Assembly: GCA_964505155.1 (NCBI GenBank)
Contig: CAZDGL010000002.1
Location: forward strand, 26,064-90,063
DNA: 64,000 nucleotides
Direction of reading: 5' to 3'
Source: an uncultured Candidatus Saccharibacteria bacterium
Lineage (GTDB): Bacteria; Patescibacteriota; Minisyncoccia; Phycocordibacterales; UBA9973
The translations under genes were made by a program, and so were the position numbers. Shown one piece after another: positions 9,774-26,556 of the stretch. Numbering within the stretch: the first letter of the stretch is position 1; every line of letters starts with the position of its first letter. The notes beneath the pieces were generated by a model. It was not told the DNA's origin, did no database searches, and was given only the letters and a program-made list of their open reading frames with translations.

Positions 9774-10310
9774 TTAATGCCACATGTGATGTAATTCTTC
9801 AGTAAAAGGATCAAAAAATGGATGATCGTGCTCTTCTTCTGGAGGAAGAAAATCTACAAACCCTGTCCATTCTCTATCAAAACCAATAATGACAATGTCC
9901 AGACCTGCCAATTCTTTTGCTTCTTTTGCAAGATTAAAAGATTTTTTGTTTTGCGCGACAATACAGTGAAGATTTGATTTATCAAATTCAAATATCTTAC
10001 CTATCTTGGTAGATATGTAATCTTCTTGAGTAGCAAATGATATGGTTTTGTATTTTGATAAATCATAAAGTTCTGGTTGGTCGTACAGATTAACATTGTG
10101 GTCAAAAGGTATTTTGAGTTGTTTCTCAAAAAAATCATTTATTTTCCAATCTATGTAACTTTGTGGTTTTCCTCCATCACATATAGCAATAGGTTGTTGT
10201 ATCAGGGAAATAAAATAACTAAGTGGATATCTTTTATCCATAAGAATATTTTTAGAATGAACAAATTTGTTTACTAGTGTAGATATTACAAGTATTAGCA
10301 CAAAAGTCAA
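9774..10310 (-). CDS. Hypothetical protein (178 aa)
   Basis: ORF; acidic His-rich C-terminus EEEHDHPFFDPF. No family recognised. Confidence 0.45.
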   Translation of the reverse strand: MTFVLILVISTLVNKFVHSKNILMDKRYPLSYFISLIQQPIAICDGGKPQSYIDWKINDFFEKQLKIPFDHNVNLYDQPELYDLSKYKTISFATQEDYISTKIGKIFEFDKSNLHCIVAQNKKSFNLAKEAKELAGLDIVIIGFDREWTGFVDFLPPEEEHDHPFFDPFTEELHHMWH

Positions 10311-14554: not shown

Positions 14555-14582
14555 TTGACAAAACTTTTCAAAAGGTTAGGAT
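14555..14582 (+). promoter_or_regulatory. Sigma70-like promoter module, copy 1 (TTGACA-16-TAGGAT)
   Basis: TTGACAaaacttttcaaaaggtTAGGAT; the same module recurs at 14977 and 15868. Confidence 0.55.
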
Positions 14583-14595
14583 GAGAGAAAAAAAT

Positions 14596-14919
14596 ATGAG
14601 CGATCCTTTAAGTGAAAATCTGAGAGAAGAGAAATTTAATGAGTTGTATCTAAATTATCTTCACAATCTCTTGCTGTACATAGAAATTGATTCAGTACAA
14701 AACCAAATCAATTTCTATGAATCTCTGATTGAAGTTGCCAAGGCAAAACCAACCCCTCACTTTATTGACCAAAAGATTGCTCGATTAAGAGCACTTAGGC
14801 GTGGTGACAGTAATGAGTGGTCTTCTTTATCAAAAGAGATACACGAGGGGTGTGTTGAAGAAAAACTTCTTAACATCTTCAAAAGAGTTAGCAAAAACAA
14901 ATTTGAGGAAAAACAGTGA
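14596..14919 (+). CDS. Cassette gene A, hypothetical (about 107 aa)
   Basis: ORF downstream of promoter module 1. The start is placed at the second ATG, the one conserved in position relative to the module. Terminator hairpin at 14945-14968. Confidence 0.5.
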   Translation: MSDPLSENLREEKFNELYLNYLHNLLLYIEIDSVQNQINFYESLIEVAKAKPTPHFIDQKIARLRALRRGDSNEWSSLSKEIHEGCVEEKLLNIFKRVSKNKFEEKQ

Positions 14920-14944
14920 GACATCACAAATTTCTCGTTTAAAC

Positions 14945-14968
14945 CAAAACCGGATAAAACCGGTTTTT
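14945..14968 (+). terminator. Intrinsic terminator AAAACCGG-ataaaa-CCGGTTTTTT
   Basis: Hairpin plus T-run; a near-identical copy sits at 15837-15860. Confidence 0.6.
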
Positions 14969-14976
14969 TCATTTGG

Positions 14977-15004
14977 TTTGACAAAATTTTTCAAAAAGGT
15001 AGGA
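14977..15004 (+). promoter_or_regulatory. Promoter module copy 2 (TTGACA-16-TAGGAT)
   Basis: TTGACAaaatttttcaaaaaggTAGGATGAAGAAAAAATAAAATATG. Confidence 0.55.
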
Positions 15005-15021
15005 TGAAGAAAAAATAAAAT

Positions 15022-15837
15022 ATGGTTAGAAAAAAACAAACAGAGCTTCACCGGCTGTGTATGTTTTACCCAGACCAGATGAAAGCAAGTGGAATCAAAA
15101 CATTCCAAGACCTAAAAAACAAGTTCATTAAAAATGGAAAATTTGTTCGTTTTTACGACAATAGCTTCAGACGTTATAAGCTGTGTAATTTTAATATTGC
15201 AGTTGCAGAATTATTGTTAGAAAAAAGATGTATCTCAAAAACAGAACGTTTGAAACAAAGCTCCTTGTATAGTTATCGCATTAGCGGTTGGAATCACAGA
15301 TTCTTCAAAAAGCATGGGCTTACTTATTTGGGAGAAGCAATAGATAGATGTATTGATAAAAAAGGGTCTTTCAAACCTATAGGTGGAAAAGATACCGCTA
15401 TCGCTACAAACCATCGCATCGCTGAAATACTAAATCAAACAGGCTTCCTTTCTGAAAAAGAGTTTTTAAAAGTTAGAAGACCTATATGGAAAAACCGAAA
15501 GTTAACAGATAAAGAACTTGGTGAATCAAAAGATGTCGTGGTCAATATTTCTAAATGGCCTTATGACACAAAAAGAATACTGAGTGTTCTCTGGAAACGG
15601 CGGCACAACTTCTCTTGGGATCGATACCAAACACCAACACCTGAAATAAAATCTGTAACTATTGGTTTTTTGGCAGAGGAGTTTATTCGCATTACTCCCT
15701 ATGACGATATACCTATATTTAAATCGAGAGGGCACAGACTAAATCATGCTTTTGCTCCCACTTGGACTGATAGAAACTTAGATGAAGCATTAGAAATCGT
15801 AGAGAAGACATTAAGAGAAAATAATCTACTTCCTTAA
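15022..15837 (+). CDS. Cassette gene B, hypothetical (271 aa)
   Basis: ORF between promoter module 2 and the terminator copy at 15837-15860. Basic; no family recognised. Confidence 0.5.
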   Translation: MVRKKQTELHRLCMFYPDQMKASGIKTFQDLKNKFIKNGKFVRFYDNSFRRYKLCNFNIAVAELLLEKRCISKTERLKQSSLYSYRISGWNHRFFKKHGLTYLGEAIDRCIDKKGSFKPIGGKDTAIATNHRIAEILNQTGFLSEKEFLKVRRPIWKNRKLTDKELGESKDVVVNISKWPYDTKRILSVLWKRRHNFSWDRYQTPTPEIKSVTIGFLAEEFIRITPYDDIPIFKSRGHRLNHAFAPTWTDRNLDEALEIVEKTLRENNLLP

Positions 15838-15860
15838 AAAACCGGCTAAAACCGGTTTTT
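15837..15860 (+). terminator. Intrinsic terminator AAAACCGG-ctaa-AACCGGTTTTT
   Basis: Hairpin plus T-run; a copy of the 14945 terminator. Confidence 0.6.
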
Positions 15861-15867
15861 GTTTTAT

Positions 15868-15895
15868 TTGACAAAGTTTCTCAAAAAGGTAGGAT
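15868..15895 (+). promoter_or_regulatory. Promoter module copy 3 (TTGACA-16-TAGGAT)
   Basis: TTGACAaagtttctcaaaaaggTAGGATGAAGGAAAAATAAAAATG. Confidence 0.55.
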
Positions 15896-15910
15896 GAAGG
15901 AAAAATAAAA

Positions 15911-16291
15911 ATGAGTACAATCAAGTATTTTAGTTTTGAGAAAAAATTAAAAGATATTGGCCTTAAAATGACCGATATTATAGCTCGGGTGACGATCGGC
16001 GAAAATGATATGGAGGAGACTCGGCTTAGCGTATCTATTGTTGGTGAGCATGGTGAAAGTGTTGTTTACTGCTCTGAATCAATAGGAGCAAATGTTTACG
16101 TAAATGGTGCTGATGACCTGCACAATCTGATGTATAGGCTTCATCAAATCATGCTAAACAACCTTGTTTGTCTTAATCCTTCTTCCCAAGAACCACAGAT
16201 TATTGAATGGTCTTCGGAAAAAAATGGTTATTTCAAAAAAAGACCAGCATTGAATGAAGAAATCATTCGCCTGCGAAAATTCTACACCTAA
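15911..16291 (+). CDS. Cassette gene C, hypothetical (126 aa)
   Basis: ORF following promoter module 3. A bidirectional terminator at 16296-16325 (TACTCCGCAttttGCGGAGTA plus T-run) is shared with the convergent rnhA. Confidence 0.5.
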   Translation: MSTIKYFSFEKKLKDIGLKMTDIIARVTIGENDMEETRLSVSIVGEHGESVVYCSESIGANVYVNGADDLHNLMYRLHQIMLNNLVCLNPSSQEPQIIEWSSEKNGYFKKRPALNEEIIRLRKFYT

Positions 16292-16324
16292 TTTACATAC
16301 TCCGCATTTTGCGGAGTATTTTTT

Positions 16325-17050
16325 TTATAAAAGTGTTTTGAGTGTATAGTCTTGAACCAAGCTAGTTTCCTCACCCTTTGAAAACACCTTTTGGTATTTT
16401 GCACCCTTTTTGCCTTTGACTCGTCTTTCACACTCTGCCCACGTTTTGTCCGCATACACCTTGCCATCAACTAGTGAAACATATGAATAAGCCGGGCCAG
16501 TTGTTTTTGACTTTTTCTTAGGAGAAGCTTTTTTTAGAGTCGTGCCAATATCCAAAAGAAATTTATCATAATCTTTTTGAGAGCCTTTGAAGAGCTGTTG
16601 TTTTTTGTGGAGCGCAGCATTGACCGCCAACTCATCACAGCGCTCATTGTAAAGCTCACCACCGTGGCCTTTGACCTTTTCTATGGAGAGTCTTTTGCCG
16701 TATTCTTTGAGGAGCGCCAAAAGCTTCACCCAGATATCTTTGTTTTCTACCGGAGTCTTGGTACTTGTGATCCAGCCTTTTTTCTCCCAACCCCAAATCC
16801 AAGAGTTCAGACCGTTTACTACATAAGCACTGTCAGAATAGACAATCACAGAGCCTTTATGAGCTCGAGCTGCACTATCAGAGAGCACCTCTAGCACTGC
16901 CTGAAGCTCCATTTGGTTGTTCGTGGCTTTCTTTGAAGCTCCGGCTATTTCCATTGCATAGTCTTGTACCAAAATAACTGCCCCCCACCCTCCCGGACCA
17001 GGATTCCCTCTCGACGCTCCATCTGTATAGACAATCAGTTTGTTTTTCAT
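16325..17050 (-). CDS. rnhA: Ribonuclease HI with a C-terminal RNA/DNA hybrid-binding (caulimovirus-VI-like) domain
   Basis: N-terminus IVYTDGASRGNPGPGGWGAVIL..., catalytic motifs and a basic linker. C-terminus AYSYVSLVDGKVYADKTWAECERRVKGKKGAKYQKVF resembles the HBD fold, which is normally N-terminal. Confidence 0.8.
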   Translation of the reverse strand: MKNKLIVYTDGASRGNPGPGGWGAVILVQDYAMEIAGASKKATNNQMELQAVLEVLSDSAARAHKGSVIVYSDSAYVVNGLNSWIWGWEKKGWITSTKTPVENKDIWVKLLALLKEYGKRLSIEKVKGHGGELYNERCDELAVNAALHKKQQLFKGSQKDYDKFLLDIGTTLKKASPKKKSKTTGPAYSYVSLVDGKVYADKTWAECERRVKGKKGAKYQKVFSKGEETSLVQDYTLKTLL

Positions 17051-17093
17051 TGTTTGATTATAACAAAAAACCCTCCTAAAAGGAGGGTTAAGA

Positions 17094-17693
17094 TTATTTT
17101 ACCTTAAAGAAAAAGGTGTCACCAACAAAGCCTGGAGCTTCATCTGCAAAAATCAACGGATAAACACTTAGTTTAAAATTTGCAGGAGTGAAATTAAACT
17201 CAGGGGCACCCCCATCATTTCTATCGGTGTAGCAAAAACGATAGAGGAAGATGTTGTTAAAAACTTTTTTCCAGCCATTAGGAATGACAAAAAAAGAAAA
17301 AGCTTTCTTAGAATTTAAATTAAGAAAAAGGCTTTTCAGATACTCTTCATTACTATTAAAGATCTGGTTAAGTCTTGCTTCTTCAAAAGTAAATTCCATA
17401 GAGCATCTTTCTCTTGAAAGACCATTGTTTAATTCATAAATTAAGTCTGAAAGCCTAAGGTTTTTTAAAAGTTTAACCTTATGGTGCTCATGGTTTATTT
17501 TCCTTGATTCAATTTTAGAAGCTTCTAATTCAACTTCTTCTGCCCCTGCTGATCTAAACCTCCAATCAAAATAGATTTGATCAAATTTTAGAGGAACACC
17601 ATTGATTATTCTTTCTGGTAAATAGTTTTGTGTTTTGTATTTATTTAGATTAAAACTAACACAATCAATAAATAACTCGTTATTAAATTCCAT
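17094..17693 (-). CDS. Hypothetical protein (199 aa)
   Basis: ORF lying between the two copies of the rnhA 5'-end sequence. No family recognised. Confidence 0.45.
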   Translation of the reverse strand: MEFNNELFIDCVSFNLNKYKTQNYLPERIINGVPLKFDQIYFDWRFRSAGAEEVELEASKIESRKINHEHHKVKLLKNLRLSDLIYELNNGLSRERCSMEFTFEEARLNQIFNSNEEYLKSLFLNLNSKKAFSFFVIPNGWKKVFNNIFLYRFCYTDRNDGGAPEFNFTPANFKLSVYPLIFADEAPGFVGDTFFFKVK

Positions 17694-17757
17694 AATAGAA
17701 GTTTTTTCTATAATACAAGAATGTATGTATATGTCAAATTTGTATATGCACCCTCAC

Positions 17758-17812
17758 TGCGTTGGCCCAGGATTCCTTCTCGACGCTCCGTCTGTATAAA
17801 CAATCAGTTTGA
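17758..17812 (-). pseudogene. Relic of the rnhA 5' end (encodes KLIVYTDGASRRNPGPTQ then a stop)
   Basis: About 45 of 48 nt identical to 16997-17044 (ccaggattccYtctcgacgctccRtctgtataRacaatcagtttg). There is no start codon. Confidence 0.7.
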
Positions 17813-17836
17813 CAAAAAAGGTTCTTAAGGTAATAT
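17809..17836 (+). promoter_or_regulatory. Promoter TTGACA-16-TAATAT for the HTH gene
   Basis: TTGACAaaaaaggttcttaaggTAATAT, placed directly at the end of the rnhA relic. Confidence 0.5.
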
Positions 17837-17860
17837 CAAGAAAAAACTTATGCCTAAAAA

Positions 17861-18154
17861 ATAAATTTTGGACTTGGAGACGTTATAGCCCAAACTAGAA
17901 AAGATAAAAATCTACTAGCAGAAGAAGTGGCTAGAAAAACCAAAATATGTGCTCCTTATTTGTCCTCGATAGAAAATAGCAGAAAGAAACCTTCTATCAA
18001 GGCGCTTAAAAGGCTTTCGAAAGTATTGGGCACAACTCCAGAGAAACTTTTGTTTGCTTGGTGGAGACATAACAATCCCAAAAAGTCTTATAACCTAAGA
18101 CAACAAATAGGGATACAAAATATCTTGAAAGAGGTTTTGGAGGTTATTAGCTAG
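17861..18154 (+). CDS. XRE-family helix-turn-helix transcriptional regulator with no canonical start codon
   Basis: In-frame translation ...NFGLGDVIAQTRKDKNLLAEEVARKTKICAPYLSSIENSRKKPSIKALKRLSKVLGTTPEKLL is a textbook HTH_3. There is no ATG/GTG/TTG upstream of helix 1. The first in-frame ATA is at 17861 and the first GTG is at 17927, inside the HTH. Confidence 0.55.
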   Translation: MNFGLGDVIAQTRKDKNLLAEEVARKTKICAPYLSSIENSRKKPSIKALKRLSKVLGTTPEKLLFAWWRHNNPKKSYNLRQQIGIQNILKEVLEVIS

Positions 18155-18215
18155 TTTTTAGTATAACAAAAAACCGCTCATAGAGCGGTTTTAATTATTG
18201 ACCTTAAAATACTAA

Positions 18216-19226
18216 TCACCTAAGTTCTCTTCTGGCATTAGCAAGAGCACTTACTGTTTCATGATTTATTTCAGATATCTTTAAGTCTAGCTGTAATGTT
18301 TTTTTCATTGAAGAAACTAATCGAAAACAAACTTCTTCTAAACTCTGAGACAATTCTAGGATTTGGAAAAACTCGTCATAACTAAACCAAAGGTAAGGGT
18401 TTTTTATATCAATAGATCTATGATTGACCCTAACTCCGATATAAGTAAAAGCGAGATTGATGTTTTCCTTGTCAAAAGTCTCCCCTTTTAATTCACCTAT
18501 AAAAAAATCTTTATAGATACTTATTAAGTCTTCTGGGCGATCTGTATTATCCTCAAAACTTAATACCCTTTCTTTGATTCCTAATCTTTTAGAGGGCATT
18601 TTTAAGTTTAGACTACTTATAAATTGTTTGTAGTTTTTAGGGAGAAATGGAATCGAGTTTTCATCAAAAGATTTTTCAAAGCTATCTGTAGGGTAAATGG
18701 ATGCAATCTGTTTAAACATGGCGATATTAGCCTGAAACATTTCTTCAATCCTTTGATCAAAAATACTTGTTCTCATTGAGTTGTTATGGCAGGAGATTGT
18801 TAAGTCTTTAATTTTAGAAAAAAAGAAAATCTTTATAAGATTAATTATATCCCTTGTATAATCACTCAAAAATCCTCTATTTTCTAAAAAAAGAAAAAGT
18901 TTAGCATTTGGGGCTTTTTCTTCTAGATATCTAAAATTTTCTTTTACAACCTTAGTGTCAAAAGGAAGCTTGATATTACAACCTAAACCACAGCCAATTT
19001 CTTCTATACCAAAAGAGAACCTTTTTAAGTCAACAAGAAGTTCAGATATATCGCTTTGCAACGAAAACACTACTTCATCTTTTTTAAACTTGTTCTTAAG
19101 CTTACTTGTAGCTTCAAACATTAAATCATAGTATGGCCCGCTATTTGGTCCAGATACAACATGGGGACAAGTAGGGCACTTTGCTTTACAGCCCTTAGAT
19201 CCATAGTTGAGTATTTCTATCTGCAT
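18216..19226 (-). CDS. CX3CX2C-motif protein, possibly a divergent radical-SAM/Fe-S enzyme (336 aa)
   Basis: N-terminal GCKAKCPTCPHV matches CxxxCxxC. The rest is too divergent for me to recognise the SAM-binding motifs. Convergent with the HTH gene. Confidence 0.45.
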   Translation of the reverse strand: MQIEILNYGSKGCKAKCPTCPHVVSGPNSGPYYDLMFEATSKLKNKFKKDEVVFSLQSDISELLVDLKRFSFGIEEIGCGLGCNIKLPFDTKVVKENFRYLEEKAPNAKLFLFLENRGFLSDYTRDIINLIKIFFFSKIKDLTISCHNNSMRTSIFDQRIEEMFQANIAMFKQIASIYPTDSFEKSFDENSIPFLPKNYKQFISSLNLKMPSKRLGIKERVLSFEDNTDRPEDLISIYKDFFIGELKGETFDKENINLAFTYIGVRVNHRSIDIKNPYLWFSYDEFFQILELSQSLEEVCFRLVSSMKKTLQLDLKISEINHETVSALANARRELR

Positions 19227-19343
19227 AATATTATATTTTAAAGTTAAAGAATTTAACTTTAAAATATAATATTACAATTACTATGTCAAGGATACCGAGT
19301 AAATCACCATCCTTGAGTAATCTAAATTTTTAACCTAAAAAAC

Positions 19344-20984
19344 TTATAAAACTTCTTGTATCCTCACTCTCACTCCTCCACGCCAGCCAGCTTCAAGGCT
19401 TCCGACAAATGAAATACTTTCCCCTTCTTTGATTTTCTCTTTCATTTCATCATCTACAAAAAAAGTAAACGCTGTTGCCTTGCCTGTTGCATCTTCAATG
19501 TTACATTCTAGATGTTCTTTGTTTTTGCCAAACATTTTTGTAGAAAGTACTCTCACATTTTCAAATAAAAAACTTGGTGCAATATTGCCAACACCAAAAG
19601 GCGCAAGGGCACGTAGCTTTTGTAAATGTCTAGTCGTCACTATACCTAGAGGCATTGGTATGGCATCAGTATTGTTTTTTTCTTCTGTAACATGATTAAC
19701 TTTTGAAATAGCTGTGTTGAGTTCTTGTTCTAAGAAATGTATCTTTTCTTTGGCAACTGCAAAACCTCCAGCTGCTTGGTGCCCACCGGCATGTAGTAGT
19801 ACTCCTTCAGGGAGAGCTTGGAAGATATAGGCTGCGTGATGCTCATCAAGCATGCGACATGAGCCTTTGATAACTCCATCTCCTGACTCACCCCAGACAA
19901 AGAAGCTCCGACTATATGTTTCTTGGAGCTTGGTAGCCACAAGTCCAAGCACTGCTGGTCGCCATGACAAGTCTCCAAGTACAACTATCTCTGGGAGATC
20001 TCTGCTATCGAGTTTTTTGTGAGCTTCTTTGACTATGCGTGCGACAAGGAGCTTTCTTTCAGCATTTATTTTTTCAAGCTCTTTTACTAAAGCAAGCGCT
20101 CGAGAAGGATTGTCAGTAGAAAGAAGCTCAAAGGCAAGCATAGGGGTATTCATGCGCGAAGCAGCATTTAATCGGGGCGCAACAGTAAAAGTCAGATCGG
20201 TCTCTGTCAGGGCATTCATATCCATCCTCTGCTCTCCAAAAAGCTCTCGCAGTCCAACTCGACGAGTCTTTTTCATAACCATCATGCCATATGTTACAAG
20301 CATTCTGTTCTCTCCCAAGAGTAGCACCATATCTGAAAGAGTCGCAAATCCTACGAGATCAAGCAACCATTTCTCCCAACCTTCTTTGATACCAAACTCT
20401 TCTCGATACTTTTCTAGAAAAGCGCAAACGAGATAAAAAGCGACTCCTGCTCCACACGGATCTTGGTTTGGATACGAGCTTTTTTTCGGATGCACTACCG
20501 CAAGGGCTGATGGATACTCTGCTAATGGCTCGTGGTGATCAGTCACTATGATATCCATCTCTCTACTGCGTGCATCAGCCACTTCAGCGATAGCGGTAAT
20601 ACCAAGATCAACAGTGATGACGAGCGAAACACCTTTGGCTTCAAGTGCATCTATACCTATCTTGCTAAGTCCATAACCTTCATCATGACGATCTGGTATA
20701 TAAACGTGTACTCTATCTTCTACTTTCAAAGCTTTAAATAAATCTAGAAGCACTACTGCTCCTGGTATACCATCACAATCATAGTCCGCATATATGCCTA
20801 TCTGCTCATCACCTTTAACTGCTTTGTAAATGCGCTCAACAGCGACACTCATGTCTTCAAACAAAGACAAATCTCCGAGTTTGTATTCTGGAAACAAAAA
20901 TGCCTTTTTTTGACTTTCATCAAGACCAAGTCTCTCTATCAGTATATCTTGCAACTGATCCGGTGTCGGAATAGTAGGGTTCAT
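19344..20984 (-). CDS. recJ: Single-stranded-DNA-specific exonuclease RecJ
   Basis: DHH motifs IYADYDCDG and VTDHH; DHHA1 region; 546 aa. Confidence 0.85.
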   Translation of the reverse strand: MNPTIPTPDQLQDILIERLGLDESQKKAFLFPEYKLGDLSLFEDMSVAVERIYKAVKGDEQIGIYADYDCDGIPGAVVLLDLFKALKVEDRVHVYIPDRHDEGYGLSKIGIDALEAKGVSLVITVDLGITAIAEVADARSREMDIIVTDHHEPLAEYPSALAVVHPKKSSYPNQDPCGAGVAFYLVCAFLEKYREEFGIKEGWEKWLLDLVGFATLSDMVLLLGENRMLVTYGMMVMKKTRRVGLRELFGEQRMDMNALTETDLTFTVAPRLNAASRMNTPMLAFELLSTDNPSRALALVKELEKINAERKLLVARIVKEAHKKLDSRDLPEIVVLGDLSWRPAVLGLVATKLQETYSRSFFVWGESGDGVIKGSCRMLDEHHAAYIFQALPEGVLLHAGGHQAAGGFAVAKEKIHFLEQELNTAISKVNHVTEEKNNTDAIPMPLGIVTTRHLQKLRALAPFGVGNIAPSFLFENVRVLSTKMFGKNKEHLECNIEDATGKATAFTFFVDDEMKEKIKEGESISFVGSLEAGWRGGVRVRIQEVL

Positions 20985-21274: not shown

Positions 21275-21910
21275 TTACTGAGCTTGTCTGAGTAAAAGTT
21301 TTCCTTTGCGAAAATTAGGATCCTTTCCCTCAAAATAACAACTCCATCCTGCATGTACCAGCCAAGGCCTTTTGGAAAAAGTCCCTACAAACTCAACCTC
21401 TCCTGTAGGCAACATAAGTGGAAAAAAATTATAACCCTCAAAAAACAAAACTCCATTTTTCTTTTTTTCGTTCTTATGACGATTCAGAATTGAACAAATC
21501 TGTGAATAAGAGAAAGCTTGGGATGCCAAATCATTGGCGGATTTAATGCCTAACTCTTGAAACAGTTCATTAGGTTGGAGTGTGATATTTATATGCACAG
21601 ACTTGATTAAGCAATCTGGCTGAGGTGGTTGATGTTCAAGAACACACCTAACAAATTTATCATAGAGTACTCTATCAATTAATCTTTTCTTCCACAAAAC
21701 TTTTCTAGTTGTCGTCCTTACTGCTGGCAAAAAATAAGGTTTCGAGTCTGGAAAAGTAACTGGTTCAAAGTCTTTAACCTTATTCAAATGTTCAACTAAA
21801 AGCTCTTCGTTTCTAGCCCAAAAAAGTTGTACATTTTTGGGCAATTCTCTTAGTGCAGATATTACAGTTTGGCAAAGCTCAAGTGGTAGTTGATCTATTT
21901 CTGTTTTCAT
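21275..21910 (-). CDS. Hypothetical protein (211 aa)
   Basis: ORF followed by the terminator hairpin GGCCAGCGGTTGCTGGCC at 21253-21272. Confidence 0.45.
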   Translation of the reverse strand: MKTEIDQLPLELCQTVISALRELPKNVQLFWARNEELLVEHLNKVKDFEPVTFPDSKPYFLPAVRTTTRKVLWKKRLIDRVLYDKFVRCVLEHQPPQPDCLIKSVHINITLQPNELFQELGIKSANDLASQAFSYSQICSILNRHKNEKKKNGVLFFEGYNFFPLMLPTGEVEFVGTFSKRPWLVHAGWSCYFEGKDPNFRKGKLLLRQAQ

Positions 21911-25908: not shown

Positions 25909-26556
25909 TTATTGTTGAACTTTTAAGTTACGTATTGCAACTTGTGTACTAACCTCAACAGTAGTTGGTGACTGATTTGGATCTGGATCAAGTCTTATTT
26001 TAACACTAATAAGTCTAATACTCGAAAGTGAGCCAGTTGTAGGAGAGACTACTCCGCCACTACCTCCAGTATAAGTACTGTCATAATAAGTAAAAACTGG
26101 TATACCATCTGTAATATTGCGAACACCTGTCATAAAAGTTTTTGTTATTTTGTTTGCAGAATTATAAGTCAAAGGATTGCCTGATGGTTTTATTGTTTCT
26201 TTGGAAAGTGTTGTGCCAGATAGTGTGTACTTGACCCACTCTTTTAGTCCGTCATTATCAATATCGCTATAAAAAGAAAAACTATTGTCTGCTATTGAGT
26301 CTATCGGGTAAGCACCGTTACTAGAAGGACTAGCCGACCTAATCTCTGCTGTCATCGGACGAAGAAGTTTTTGAGCACTATCCCCAACAGAAAGACTGTT
26401 ACTAAAATACCTGTTGAAAGAAAAAACGTCTCCTTGAAACTTAGAAATAGTGATTCCTAAAACTCCGACAATGGCCATAACTACAAGAACCTCTATAAAA
26501 GTATATCCGCCACTAAAGATCTTTTTTCTTTTATGGGTTGAGCTGTATTGTTTCAT
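25909..26556 (-). CDS. Prepilin-type N-terminal cleavage/methylation domain protein (minor pilin)
   Basis: GGYTFIEVLVVMAIVGVLG class III signal peptide. Confidence 0.75.
   Translation of the reverse strand: MKQYSSTHKRKKIFSGGYTFIEVLVVMAIVGVLGITISKFQGDVFSFNRYFSNSLSVGDSAQKLLRPMTAEIRSASPSSNGAYPIDSIADNSFSFYSDIDNDGLKEWVKYTLSGTTLSKETIKPSGNPLTYNSANKITKTFMTGVRNITDGIPVFTYYDSTYTGGSGGVVSPTTGSLSSIRLISVKIRLDPDPNQSPTTVEVSTQVAIRNLKVQQ

Follow-up and report, generated by a model that had tools for sequence, protein, structure and literature searches.

Genomic islets at insertion hotspots have conserved core flanks, a cargo that varies among species, a low G+C content, and a cargo whose similarity between lineages exceeds that of the flanks. 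The segment 17051–19343, between recJ and rnhA, resembles such islets in all of these respects. It belongs to the 64 000-nucleotide stretch of DNA analysed here (the window; positions 26,064 to 90,063 of contig CAZDGL010000002.1, assembly GCA_964505155.1), which comes from a genome of Candidatus Nomurabacteria (Paceibacterota, candidate phyla radiation (CPR)). It is unlike them in being very small (2.3 kb), in having no mobility genes, in not lying at a tRNA gene, and in that one step of its formation left a duplication of at least 48 bp of the 5' end of the target gene. The islet contains a 336-aa open reading frame (ORF) with an N-terminal cysteine motif (o336), a frameshifted gene for an XRE-family helix-turn-helix (HTH) protein, a 199-aa ORF (o199) and a relic of the rnhA 5' end. 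We consider it likely, in a joint judgement that covers the islet, the order of events, the frameshift and the inferred functions together, that these 2.29 kb are a strain-variable islet formed by successive insertions into a normally tight recJ–rnhA junction.

We read the region 15800–20400 of the window and listed its ORFs. Exact-protein look-ups then gave independent assemblies of the same organism and close strains. Three of these, L001 (SRR13076572), L002 (GCA_031972875.1, a GenBank metagenome-assembled genome (MAG)) and L011 (SRR13076594), are 100% identical to the window here, over 1.7–2.5 kb. Strain L005 (GCA_013565575.1) is 97.9% identical to the window, and L097, from a Joint Genome Institute metagenome, is a relative at about 95% identity.

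The recJ–rnhA junction as an insertion hotspot

A scan for RecJ in one genome per species gave 80 loci, all from Candidatus Nomurabacteria/Paceibacterota or other Patescibacteria, onto which the proteins of the window were mapped; gap counts refer to the 73 loci in which recJ and rnhA are both complete. The gene order pgk-HIT-recJ-rnhA-comEC is conserved across the Nomurabacteria/Paceibacterota loci. Since the gap between recJ and rnhA is at most 60 bp in 42 of the 73 loci (median 22 bp), the 2.29 kb found there in the window represent an insertion. The gap measures 60–300 bp in six further loci and exceeds 300 bp in 25. Cargo in these 25 large gaps is unrelated and lies in either orientation: DUF1003 membrane proteins, an Nramp transporter, a pentapeptide-repeat protein, a PaaX/Cas2-like protein and several unknowns. 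XRE HTH genes of the same family as that of the window occur within the gap of four species. Because 25 other loci carry unrelated cargo at the same place, the junction is, judged from these gene orders, a recurrent insertion hotspot. The insert of the window (2293 bp) is the largest among the occupied gaps, and its G+C content is 0.29–0.34, compared with 0.44–0.48 for rnhA and recJ. An earlier interpretation made from the letters alone (the sequence-only reading) had proposed an acquired mini-island next to recJ and had advised looking for relatives with a clean junction; such junctions exist in 42 of the 73 loci, and together with the conserved gene order and the low G+C content of the insert they bear the proposal out.

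That the islet is instead ancestral and was lost repeatedly from the relatives has a negligible probability and is effectively refuted by the locus mapping and the gap survey: at most, several close relatives also hold something in the gap, but the cargo of the other gaps is unrelated, junctions of 2–30 bp occur on both sides of the phylogenetic spread (42% to 83% RecJ identity), the homologues of o336 occupy unrelated contexts, the G+C content is low, and o336 is 99% identical between lineages in which recJ is 94.8% identical.

Unknown ORFs of low G+C content also lie nearby, one of 211 aa between HIT and recJ (21275–21910) and three of 112, 271 and 126 aa between comEC and rnhA (14581–16291). 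They are present in some relatives only, and therefore further variable slots seem to exist around the same core genes. In two of the surveyed loci, rnhA (L015, 1794–2520) and recJ (L046, 8001–9663) each match as two overlapping pieces in different frames, possibly as a result of frameshifts or assembly errors.

Order of events at the junction

In L097 the order is recJ, o336, the HTH gene (intact and on the opposite strand) and rnhA, without o199 and without the relic; the start codons of the HTH gene and rnhA are only 70 bp apart. The HTH gene and its promoter are collinear in a three-way alignment of the window, L005 and L097. After ...TTTTTTGTCAAACT, L097 runs on with AAGCAAAAAAGATATATACTAACAAAATGAAAAACAAACT-TATTATC..., which comprises the −10 element, the ATG and the coding sequence of rnhA. 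At the same point the window jumps directly to GATTGT..., as does L005, which shares both o199 and the relic with it. Past codon ~18 the relic yields to the promoter of o199, and this is followed by o199, its terminator, TGTTATAAT, six bases and the complete rnhA.

A repeat search paired 16995–17042 with 17764–17811 (48 nt, 92% identical, four mismatches), corresponding to rnhA codons 3–18, and BLAST within the window returned the same two copies with E = 1.4e-13. They are spaced 769 bp from start to start, with 721 bp between them, and o199 lies in this interval, as the sequence-only reading had stated. Read on the minus strand, the relic gives KLIVYTDGASRRNPGP, then T-Q-stop (TGA at 17754–17756), and has no ATG. 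The copy, its in-frame stop and its lack of an ATG had been described correctly, with three mismatches instead of four and with slightly different boundaries; the relic also meets the HTH promoter as described, the first three promoter bases overlapping the end of the relic. In composition the relic is what is left of the HTH–rnhA spacer of L097 plus the rnhA 5' end once the 40 bp between two CAAACT repeats are taken out. The relics of the window and L005 differ at eight of 48 positions, whereas elsewhere the two strains differ by about 1.5–2%, and each has private changes relative to the real rnhA; on these grounds the relic is decaying, not conserved. Its divergence between the two strains exceeds the expectation from the synonymous-site divergence of neighbouring genes. 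Import of the relic from a different species was considered and rejected, as it is 92% identical to the rnhA of its own genome and at most 87% identical to that of any relative.

The comparison with L097 and L005 shows an order of events in five steps. At first recJ and rnhA were adjacent. Then o336 and the HTH cassette were inserted, giving the state of L097. The o199 cassette came in next, bringing with it the promoter and about the first 20 codons of rnhA in a second copy, and the original rnhA 5' end was stranded beside the HTH promoter. A 40-bp deletion between the CAAACT microhomologies subsequently took the −10 element, the ATG and the first three codons of the stranded copy, the remainder of which is decaying. 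Finally, one A was lost from a run of seven in the HTH gene, in the window strain only. The reverse derivation, of L097 from the window form by a repeat-mediated deletion of o199, is rejected, since the 40 bp absent from the relic, the ATG among them, are still present in L097. Thus the claim that a duplicated target fragment flanks the inserted segment stands for o199, and it does not extend to o336 and the HTH gene, both of which L097 has without a relic. The HTH cassette of L097 is itself flanked by a 16-nt direct repeat of a T-run/−10 module (TTTTTTGTTATACTAA and TTTTTTGTCAAACTAA). This repeat, together with an orphan TGTTATACT after the o336 terminator, suggests that o336 was once directly upstream of rnhA, before the HTH cassette arrived.

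Identity between the window (15911–19343) and L097 is mosaic. It is 97–100% for o336, the spacer, the HTH gene, rnhA and the 126-aa gene, and in the flanks it is 94.8% (recJ), 93.9% (comEC) and 87.8% (pgk), which points to a recent homologous exchange of the islet between lineages.

A single-crossover (Campbell-type) recombination of a circularised fragment containing o199 and the rnhA 5' region would give the observed structure, and the o199 insertion with its duplication may have come about in this way or by an equivalent illegitimate event. Two results weigh against this part of the account. No recombinase or transposase was found among the islet proteins with Pfam, NCBIfam, PADLOC or PHROGs, nor is there a tRNA gene, so the crossover is a conjectural mechanism for the duplication of at least 48 bp. 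In addition, none of the 25 other occupied junctions examined has an rnhA relic; the duplication is therefore one event and not a property of the hotspot, and the idea that target duplication is a general signature of the hotspot was rejected. The two rnhA 5' copies could alternatively be the attL and attR of a small site-specific cassette (o199) that was mobilised in trans by a recombinase encoded elsewhere, that targets the rnhA 5' end and that brings a replacement 5' end. The direct repeats (48 nt, 92% identical) do surround a self-contained unit of promoter, ORF and terminator, as in site-specific integrative elements, the downstream copy restores an intact rnhA with its own promoter, and the 16-nt repeat of L097 flanks the HTH cassette likewise. 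However, there is no integrase gene in the islet, o199 stands without any homologue and no second integration event is known, the other occupied junctions are without a relic, and the left repeat has lost 40 bp by microhomology deletion and is decaying. We therefore regard a cassette of this kind as improbable, and keep to successive insertions, with a crossover or an equivalent event as the possible source of the duplication.

Frameshift in the regulator gene

Phase-variable loci and the poly-A frameshift pseudogenes of AT-rich reduced genomes are the closest parallels to the HTH gene of the islet, which likewise has a tract in its first codons, occurs in strains with six and with seven A, and regains its frame when one base is restored. 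It is unlike them in that the tract of the window is short, is unconserved in homologues and has no stimulatory structure.

The HTH_3 model of Pfam is matched over its full profile (1–55 of 55; E = 2.6e-10; 40.6 bits, cut-off 23). The match starts at codon 10 of a frame that, opening after the stop at 17855–17857, runs from 17858 to the TAG at its end. The sequence-only reading was right that no start codon precedes the domain in this frame: the first in-frame ATG, GTG or TTG is GTG 17927, inside the domain, and its use would cost helix 1 and most of helix 2. The proposed cause, an ATG-to-ATA mutation of the start or a non-canonical initiator, does not hold, because an ATG at 17850, in another frame and 13 nt past the −10 element, had been missed. 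In the window it is followed by CCT, a run of six A (17856–17861) and TAA (17862–17864), so that translation from it ends after Met-Pro-Lys-Lys. In L005 the run has seven A and the reading is ATG CCT AAA AAA ATA AAT TTT GGA..., which gives MPKKINFGLGDVIAQ... in an uninterrupted ORF as far as codon 40, where the contig ends. L097 also has seven A, with an intact 101-aa ORF (MPKKINFGLGD...) that matches HTH_3 and HTH_31. The promoter is 100% identical in L097 and L005, and the run has six A in the window, L001, L002 and L011. A start at ATA or another non-canonical codon was rejected, as the two strains with seven A show an ordinary ATG-initiated ORF. On this comparison of strains the start codon is intact at 17850 and the lesion is a real 1-bp deletion in the A7 run, three codons in, that is derived in the window strain; the window allele would then be a loss of function, and any targets that the protein represses would be derepressed in this strain.

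A point that weighs against loss of function is that low-level full-length protein could arise by slippage on CCU-AAA-AAA-UAA, a minority possibility. The HTH gene would in that case still function, through −1 slippage of tRNA-Lys, through transcriptional slippage, or as a phase-variable switch in the A run. The P-site tRNA would re-pair perfectly on moving from AAA at 17859–17861 to AAA at 17858–17860, with ATA in the A site, and the product would be exactly the MPKKINFG... of the A7 allele; A6 and A7 tracts both exist in nature, and the ORF beyond the shift has no further lesion. However, there is no downstream stimulatory RNA structure (minimum free energy −11.4 kcal/mol, z = −0.19 against shuffles), and the A run is not conserved in the HTH homologues of four related genomes (L013, L014, L019 and L029). 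The four A6 sequences are otherwise identical, and so may be a single clone. Tracts of six or seven A are, moreover, shorter than typical phase-variable tracts. A programmed −1 frameshift was rejected: although a slippery A6-UAA exists, shuffled sequences fold just as well, and the intact relatives need no frameshift. All in all, we consider it unlikely that the gene still functions in the window strain.

A sequencing or assembly error in the A6 run, with the gene really intact, is far less credible still. Homopolymers are the classic site of indel errors, and restoring one A yields a perfect ORF, but SRR13076572, SRR13076594, GCA_031972875.1 and the window all have six A at 100% identity over 1.7–2.5 kb, and similar data yield seven A in other strains. 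A random read error is unlikely given that at least two sequencing runs and the GenBank MAG agree fully with the window, and homopolymer errors of short reads typically affect runs longer than six bases. A real deletion thus remains our reading of the A6 run.

The o336 family and the radical-SAM question

Radical S-adenosylmethionine (SAM) enzymes (PF04055; for example BioB, QueE and PflA) have a CX3CX2C motif after the first β-strand. The ORF o336 is like them in this, and in that its N-terminal half (residues 1–150) alternates between β and α; it is unlike them in its C-terminal half, in which the motif GVRxxHxSxDIxNPxLWxSYDE has no known counterpart. The protein begins MQIEILNYGSKGCKAKCPTCP, and its motif, which had already been pointed out as CKAKCPTC, is C13-K-A-K-C17-P-T-C20, followed by P21. 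A word-indexed search gave 11 homologues, none of them annotated, with 45–99% identity, and a second such search with a wider profile added nothing. An exhaustive profile search of 1.84 billion cluster representatives gave 28 at E ≤ 1e-3, nearly all of 320–370 aa. Across 12 sequences C13, C17 and C20 do not vary, and with 30 family members compared their conservation is still at least 90%; P21, too, is nearly invariant in the family, and N149, R220, G264, H269 and W280 are invariant. The homologues are stand-alone genes by mreB, murB, ftsW or miscellaneous genes, with no conserved partner and no HTH gene. A phage origin was rejected in the absence of a PHROGs match, a viral contig or a phage tblastn match for o336 or its homologue P0029, and a role in a defence system was rejected, PADLOC having no match for o336 or o199.

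Several results count in favour of membership in the radical-SAM superfamily. An AlphaFold2 (AF2) model from the 12-sequence alignment (predicted local distance difference test (pLDDT) 82, predicted template modelling score (pTM) 0.81) has β1, a low-confidence Cys loop, α1, and four more β/α units to residue ~177, and puts the Cys motif between strand 2–6 and helix 33–46. The full-length homologue P0029 matches PF04055 with E = 1.4e-5 (profile positions 3–121), and a second homologue, P0023, does so with E = 0.1. The NCBIfam model rSAM_STM4011 matches two of 30 members (E = 0.007). The top structural match of o336 in BFVD is a phage 'Radical_SAM domain containing protein' (E = 3.9e-4, probability 0.97, template modelling (TM) score 0.33). 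With hhalign, the 30-member alignment was compared with an alignment of Escherichia coli BioB, MoaA, LipA, PflA and QueE, with a probability of 89% and P = 2e-6; each of the five single radical-SAM sequences aligned at the motif with P = 6e-5 to 8e-3, and 12 control E. coli proteins that are not radical-SAM enzymes gave P = 0.1–0.6.

Several other results count against membership in the superfamily. The protein o336 itself has no Pfam or NCBIfam match, the score of P0029 (25.8 bits) is below the Pfam cut-off (29.5), and the profile-profile match covers only 41 columns, from β1 through the Cys loop to α1. Foldseek against 350,000 PDB chains gave a best E of 0.011, with TM scores of 0.13–0.24 and no radical-SAM enzyme in the top 50. 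Inspection of the family alignment revealed neither GGE after β2 nor GxIxGxxE at β5; conserved instead are SFxxD after β2 and xNN (N149) at β5. In a search of PDB sequences with the family profiles by hmmsearch, the only match was one to BioB at the level of the motif (E = 0.47).

These results leave room for an appreciable, though smaller, chance that o336 is not a radical-SAM protein, its cysteines binding zinc, or an Fe-S cluster with a structural or redox role, in a fold that has no relation to the partial TIM barrel of radical-SAM enzymes. In favour of this are the lack of a family match for o336, the failure of a confident model (pTM 0.81) to match any solved radical-SAM structure, and the end of the homology signals after α1; further, the third Cys is preceded by Thr, His, Leu or a similar residue where an aromatic one is usual, and there is no GGE-type motif. 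On the other side, no family except radical SAM comes up repeatedly among the weak Pfam, NCBIfam and BFVD matches, the motif stands directly after β1 and before α1, as in radical-SAM enzymes, and the hhalign controls score far lower. The sequence-only reading had called the motif reminiscent of radical-SAM enzymes. This can be kept as far as the motif and its context are concerned, which do score as radical-SAM-like, and it lacks the backing of a family match of o336's own or of a matching solved radical-SAM structure. On balance o336 is somewhat more probably a divergent member of the radical-SAM superfamily, and we file it as 'radical-SAM-like, membership not established'. As such it would bind a [4Fe-4S] cluster through C13, C17 and C20 and may perform SAM-dependent radical chemistry.

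Regulator family, candidate operators and targets

XRE/Cro-C1 repressors such as SinR, DdrO, the C proteins of restriction-modification systems and RstR have a full HTH_3 domain and are encoded by small stand-alone genes with their own promoters, and the HTH gene of the window is like them. It differs in having a C-terminal extension of ~35 aa with W-x3-NP, and in being frameshifted. With the frame repaired, the nearest solved structures are SinR (E = 2e-5) and DdrO, and the nearest NCBIfam models are RstR and DicA; by these matches the repaired protein is a generic XRE regulator. Elsewhere the W-x3-NP extension occurs only in homologues that neighbour rnhA in related CPR genomes. Homologues with 27–37% identity lie between recJ and rnhA, on the recJ strand, in L013, L014, L019 and L029, and because they sit there the family seems tied to the 5' neighbourhood of rnhA and not to o336. 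That regulator and Fe-S enzyme form a functional unit is not borne out: o336 homologues occur elsewhere without the HTH gene, the HTH family occurs beside rnhA without o336, and the separate genomic contexts of the two families led us to reject the HTH protein as a dedicated partner of o336.

The best profile for the HTH protein is PADLOC HTH_VI (E = 1.4e-14, positions 2–81 of 92), which beats the generic Pfam model. To judge from the model name and from Mestre et al. (2020; PMC7736814), HTH_VI is the HTH component of type VI retrons. Unlike such a retron, the locus has no match to reverse transcriptase or to any other Pfam family in the adjoining ORFs o126, o271, o199 and o336 and no small toxin gene adjacent, a search for non-coding RNA not having been made. 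As no reverse transcriptase is nearby, the HTH gene is not part of a retron.

Between the window and L097 (3992–4297) the HTH gene has seven non-synonymous and two synonymous changes. Six of the seven lie in codons 32–40 (17943–17969 of the window), where there is no synonymous change, and by alignment with SinR these codons correspond to the turn and the first half of the recognition helix. The sequence of L005 is of the window type through codon 40, and L013 and L014 differ in the same segment. The pattern suggests that the DNA-binding specificity of this regulator may be diversifying. The promoter regions of the HTH gene and o336 are nevertheless identical in the window and L097, despite the six differences in the recognition segment.

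A perfect palindrome of 49 bp, composed of A and T only, covers the −10 element of o336 and the predicted start of its transcription, up to the ATG. L097 has it with 100% identity, and it is absent upstream of the o336 homologues in L012, L093 and L094, two of which have TTGAC-N1-2-GTCAA over the −35 element instead. We take the palindrome as a candidate operator, linked to the HTH protein by proximity alone. Candidate operators in the neighbourhood would be limited to the HTH gene's own promoter and this palindrome, one or both.

The most far-reaching interpretation is that the o336 family is an unrecognised, CPR-restricted radical-SAM-like Fe-S family, consisting of a CX3CX2C-P module and a new C-terminal domain, which travels between Paceibacteria as a promoter-ORF-terminator cassette; here it would have come under an XRE repressor via the 49-bp palindrome, and this repressor, with a diversifying recognition helix, would be off because of the poly-A frameshift. 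As a whole we hold this to be doubtful.

The ORF o199

Compared with 5.8 billion proteins, o199 matched only itself, and searches of Pfam, NCBIfam, PADLOC, PHROGs and PDB yielded nothing. It is intact in the window and in L005, with five synonymous and four non-synonymous differences, and absent from L097. An ORF of 199 codons at ~31% G+C, with a strong promoter (11 of 12 consensus positions) and a terminator, and intact in two strains, can be argued to be a real gene, and these data argue for a lineage-specific gene that would be of recent origin. A single-sequence AF2 model of o199 was unusable (pLDDT 29).

Transcription units and rnhA

The islet consists of three independent transcription units, each with its own near-consensus promoter of the σ70 type, and intrinsic terminators end both minus-strand genes (Table 1).

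Table 1. Positions of genes and signals at the recJ–rnhA locus of the window
Feature	Position	Strand	Remarks
rnhA	16325–17050	minus	241 aa; Pfam RNase_H
rnhA own extended −10 promoter	17051–17065	minus	TGTTATAAT at 17057–17065, then CAAACA (6 nt), ATG
o199 terminator	17069–17089	minus	9-bp stem, 5 G-C pairs, then T-run
o199	17094–17693	minus	199-aa ORF between the two rnhA 5' copies
o199 promoter	17737–17710	minus	TTGACA-16-TATTAT; 11/12 consensus positions
rnhA 5' relic	17754–17811	minus	48-nt core 17764–17811; repeat search and BLAST
HTH promoter	17809–17836	plus	TTGACA-16-TAATAT; 10/12 consensus positions
XRE-family HTH gene, frameshifted	17850–18154	plus	HTH_3; TAG 18152–18154
o336 terminator	18170–18192	minus	then orphan extended −10-like TGTTATACT at 18160–18168
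o336	18216–19226	minus	336-aa ORF, CX3CX2C-P motif
Perfect palindrome	19226–19274		23+23 nt, 3-nt centre (49 bp, A/T only); repeat search
o336 promoter	19289–19261	minus	TTGACA-17-TATTTT; 10/12 consensus positions
recJ	19344–20984	minus	Pfam DHH, DHHA1, RecJ_OB; conserved upstream neighbour

The 3' flank of o199 resembles that of o336 (77% similarity; 17053–17108 versus 18156–18208), and both have the common shape TTTAAGGT..AATAAT..ACC, stem-loop, TTTTTTGTTATA(A/C)T, with differing hairpin stem sequences. The shared segment forms the last four codons and the stop of o199 and is non-coding after o336, where its copy leads into the orphan extended −10 aimed antisense into the HTH gene. The −10 hexamers of rnhA, o199 and the HTH gene stand only 6–16 nt before the ATG, and no Shine-Dalgarno sequence is visible. 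Taken together, these two observations suggest that the mRNAs of the three genes may be leaderless or have very short leaders.

The rnhA gene of Table 1 is an intact, functional copy. Its RNase HI core (residues 3–146) matches Pfam RNase_H with E = 3.9e-38 and 131 bits, the RNase_H domain being full length, and the score against the NCBIfam model for ribonuclease HI (PRK00203), 156.5 bits, is just under the equivalog cut-off of 160. Compared with L097 it has 18 synonymous and two non-synonymous changes. A C-terminal extension of ~90 aa contains a weak match to the Cauli_VI hybrid-binding domain (residues 199–221, E = 5e-4); the hybrid-binding domain of RNase H1 is usually N-terminal. The RNase H proteins of more distant Nomurabacteria align to residues 1–146 only.

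The layout upstream of rnhA, namely a terminator, a T-run, TGTTATAAT, CA(A/G)AAC(A/T) (N6-7) and ATG, is found also in L039, and a displaced copy is present in L013. Because it is shared with L039 and survives in L013, this module looks like the native rnhA promoter of the clade, and rnhA would now be transcribed from this extended −10 of its own (TGTTATAAT), which lies 6 nt before the ATG, as an mRNA that is probably leaderless or nearly so. In L013 a 98-bp element (10030–10127) with perfect 14-nt terminal inverted repeats (ATCACGTACAAAAT and ATTTTGTACGTGAT) lies exactly at the rnhA start codon, and the former promoter and start (TATAATCAAACAATGA) have been moved ~100 bp upstream; the element resembles an inserted miniature inverted-repeat transposable element.

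Implications

For annotation, the HTH gene is best entered as frameshifted with its start at 17850, and the tempting misreading that its start was lost gives way to a frameshift three codons after an intact ATG. The small, unannotated Cys-motif family of o336 is flagged here because it may be a very divergent branch of the radical-SAM proteins, and thus a possible lead for enzyme discovery. The islet as such is an ordinary accessory islet with instructive details, and the current understanding is unchanged by it. It documents, base by base, the gain of accessory genes at a core junction in a streamlined CPR genome that has no mobile-element genes there, and the traces that are left behind: a duplicated 5' end of the target gene, a deletion between microhomologies, a recombination tract and a frameshift in a homopolymer.

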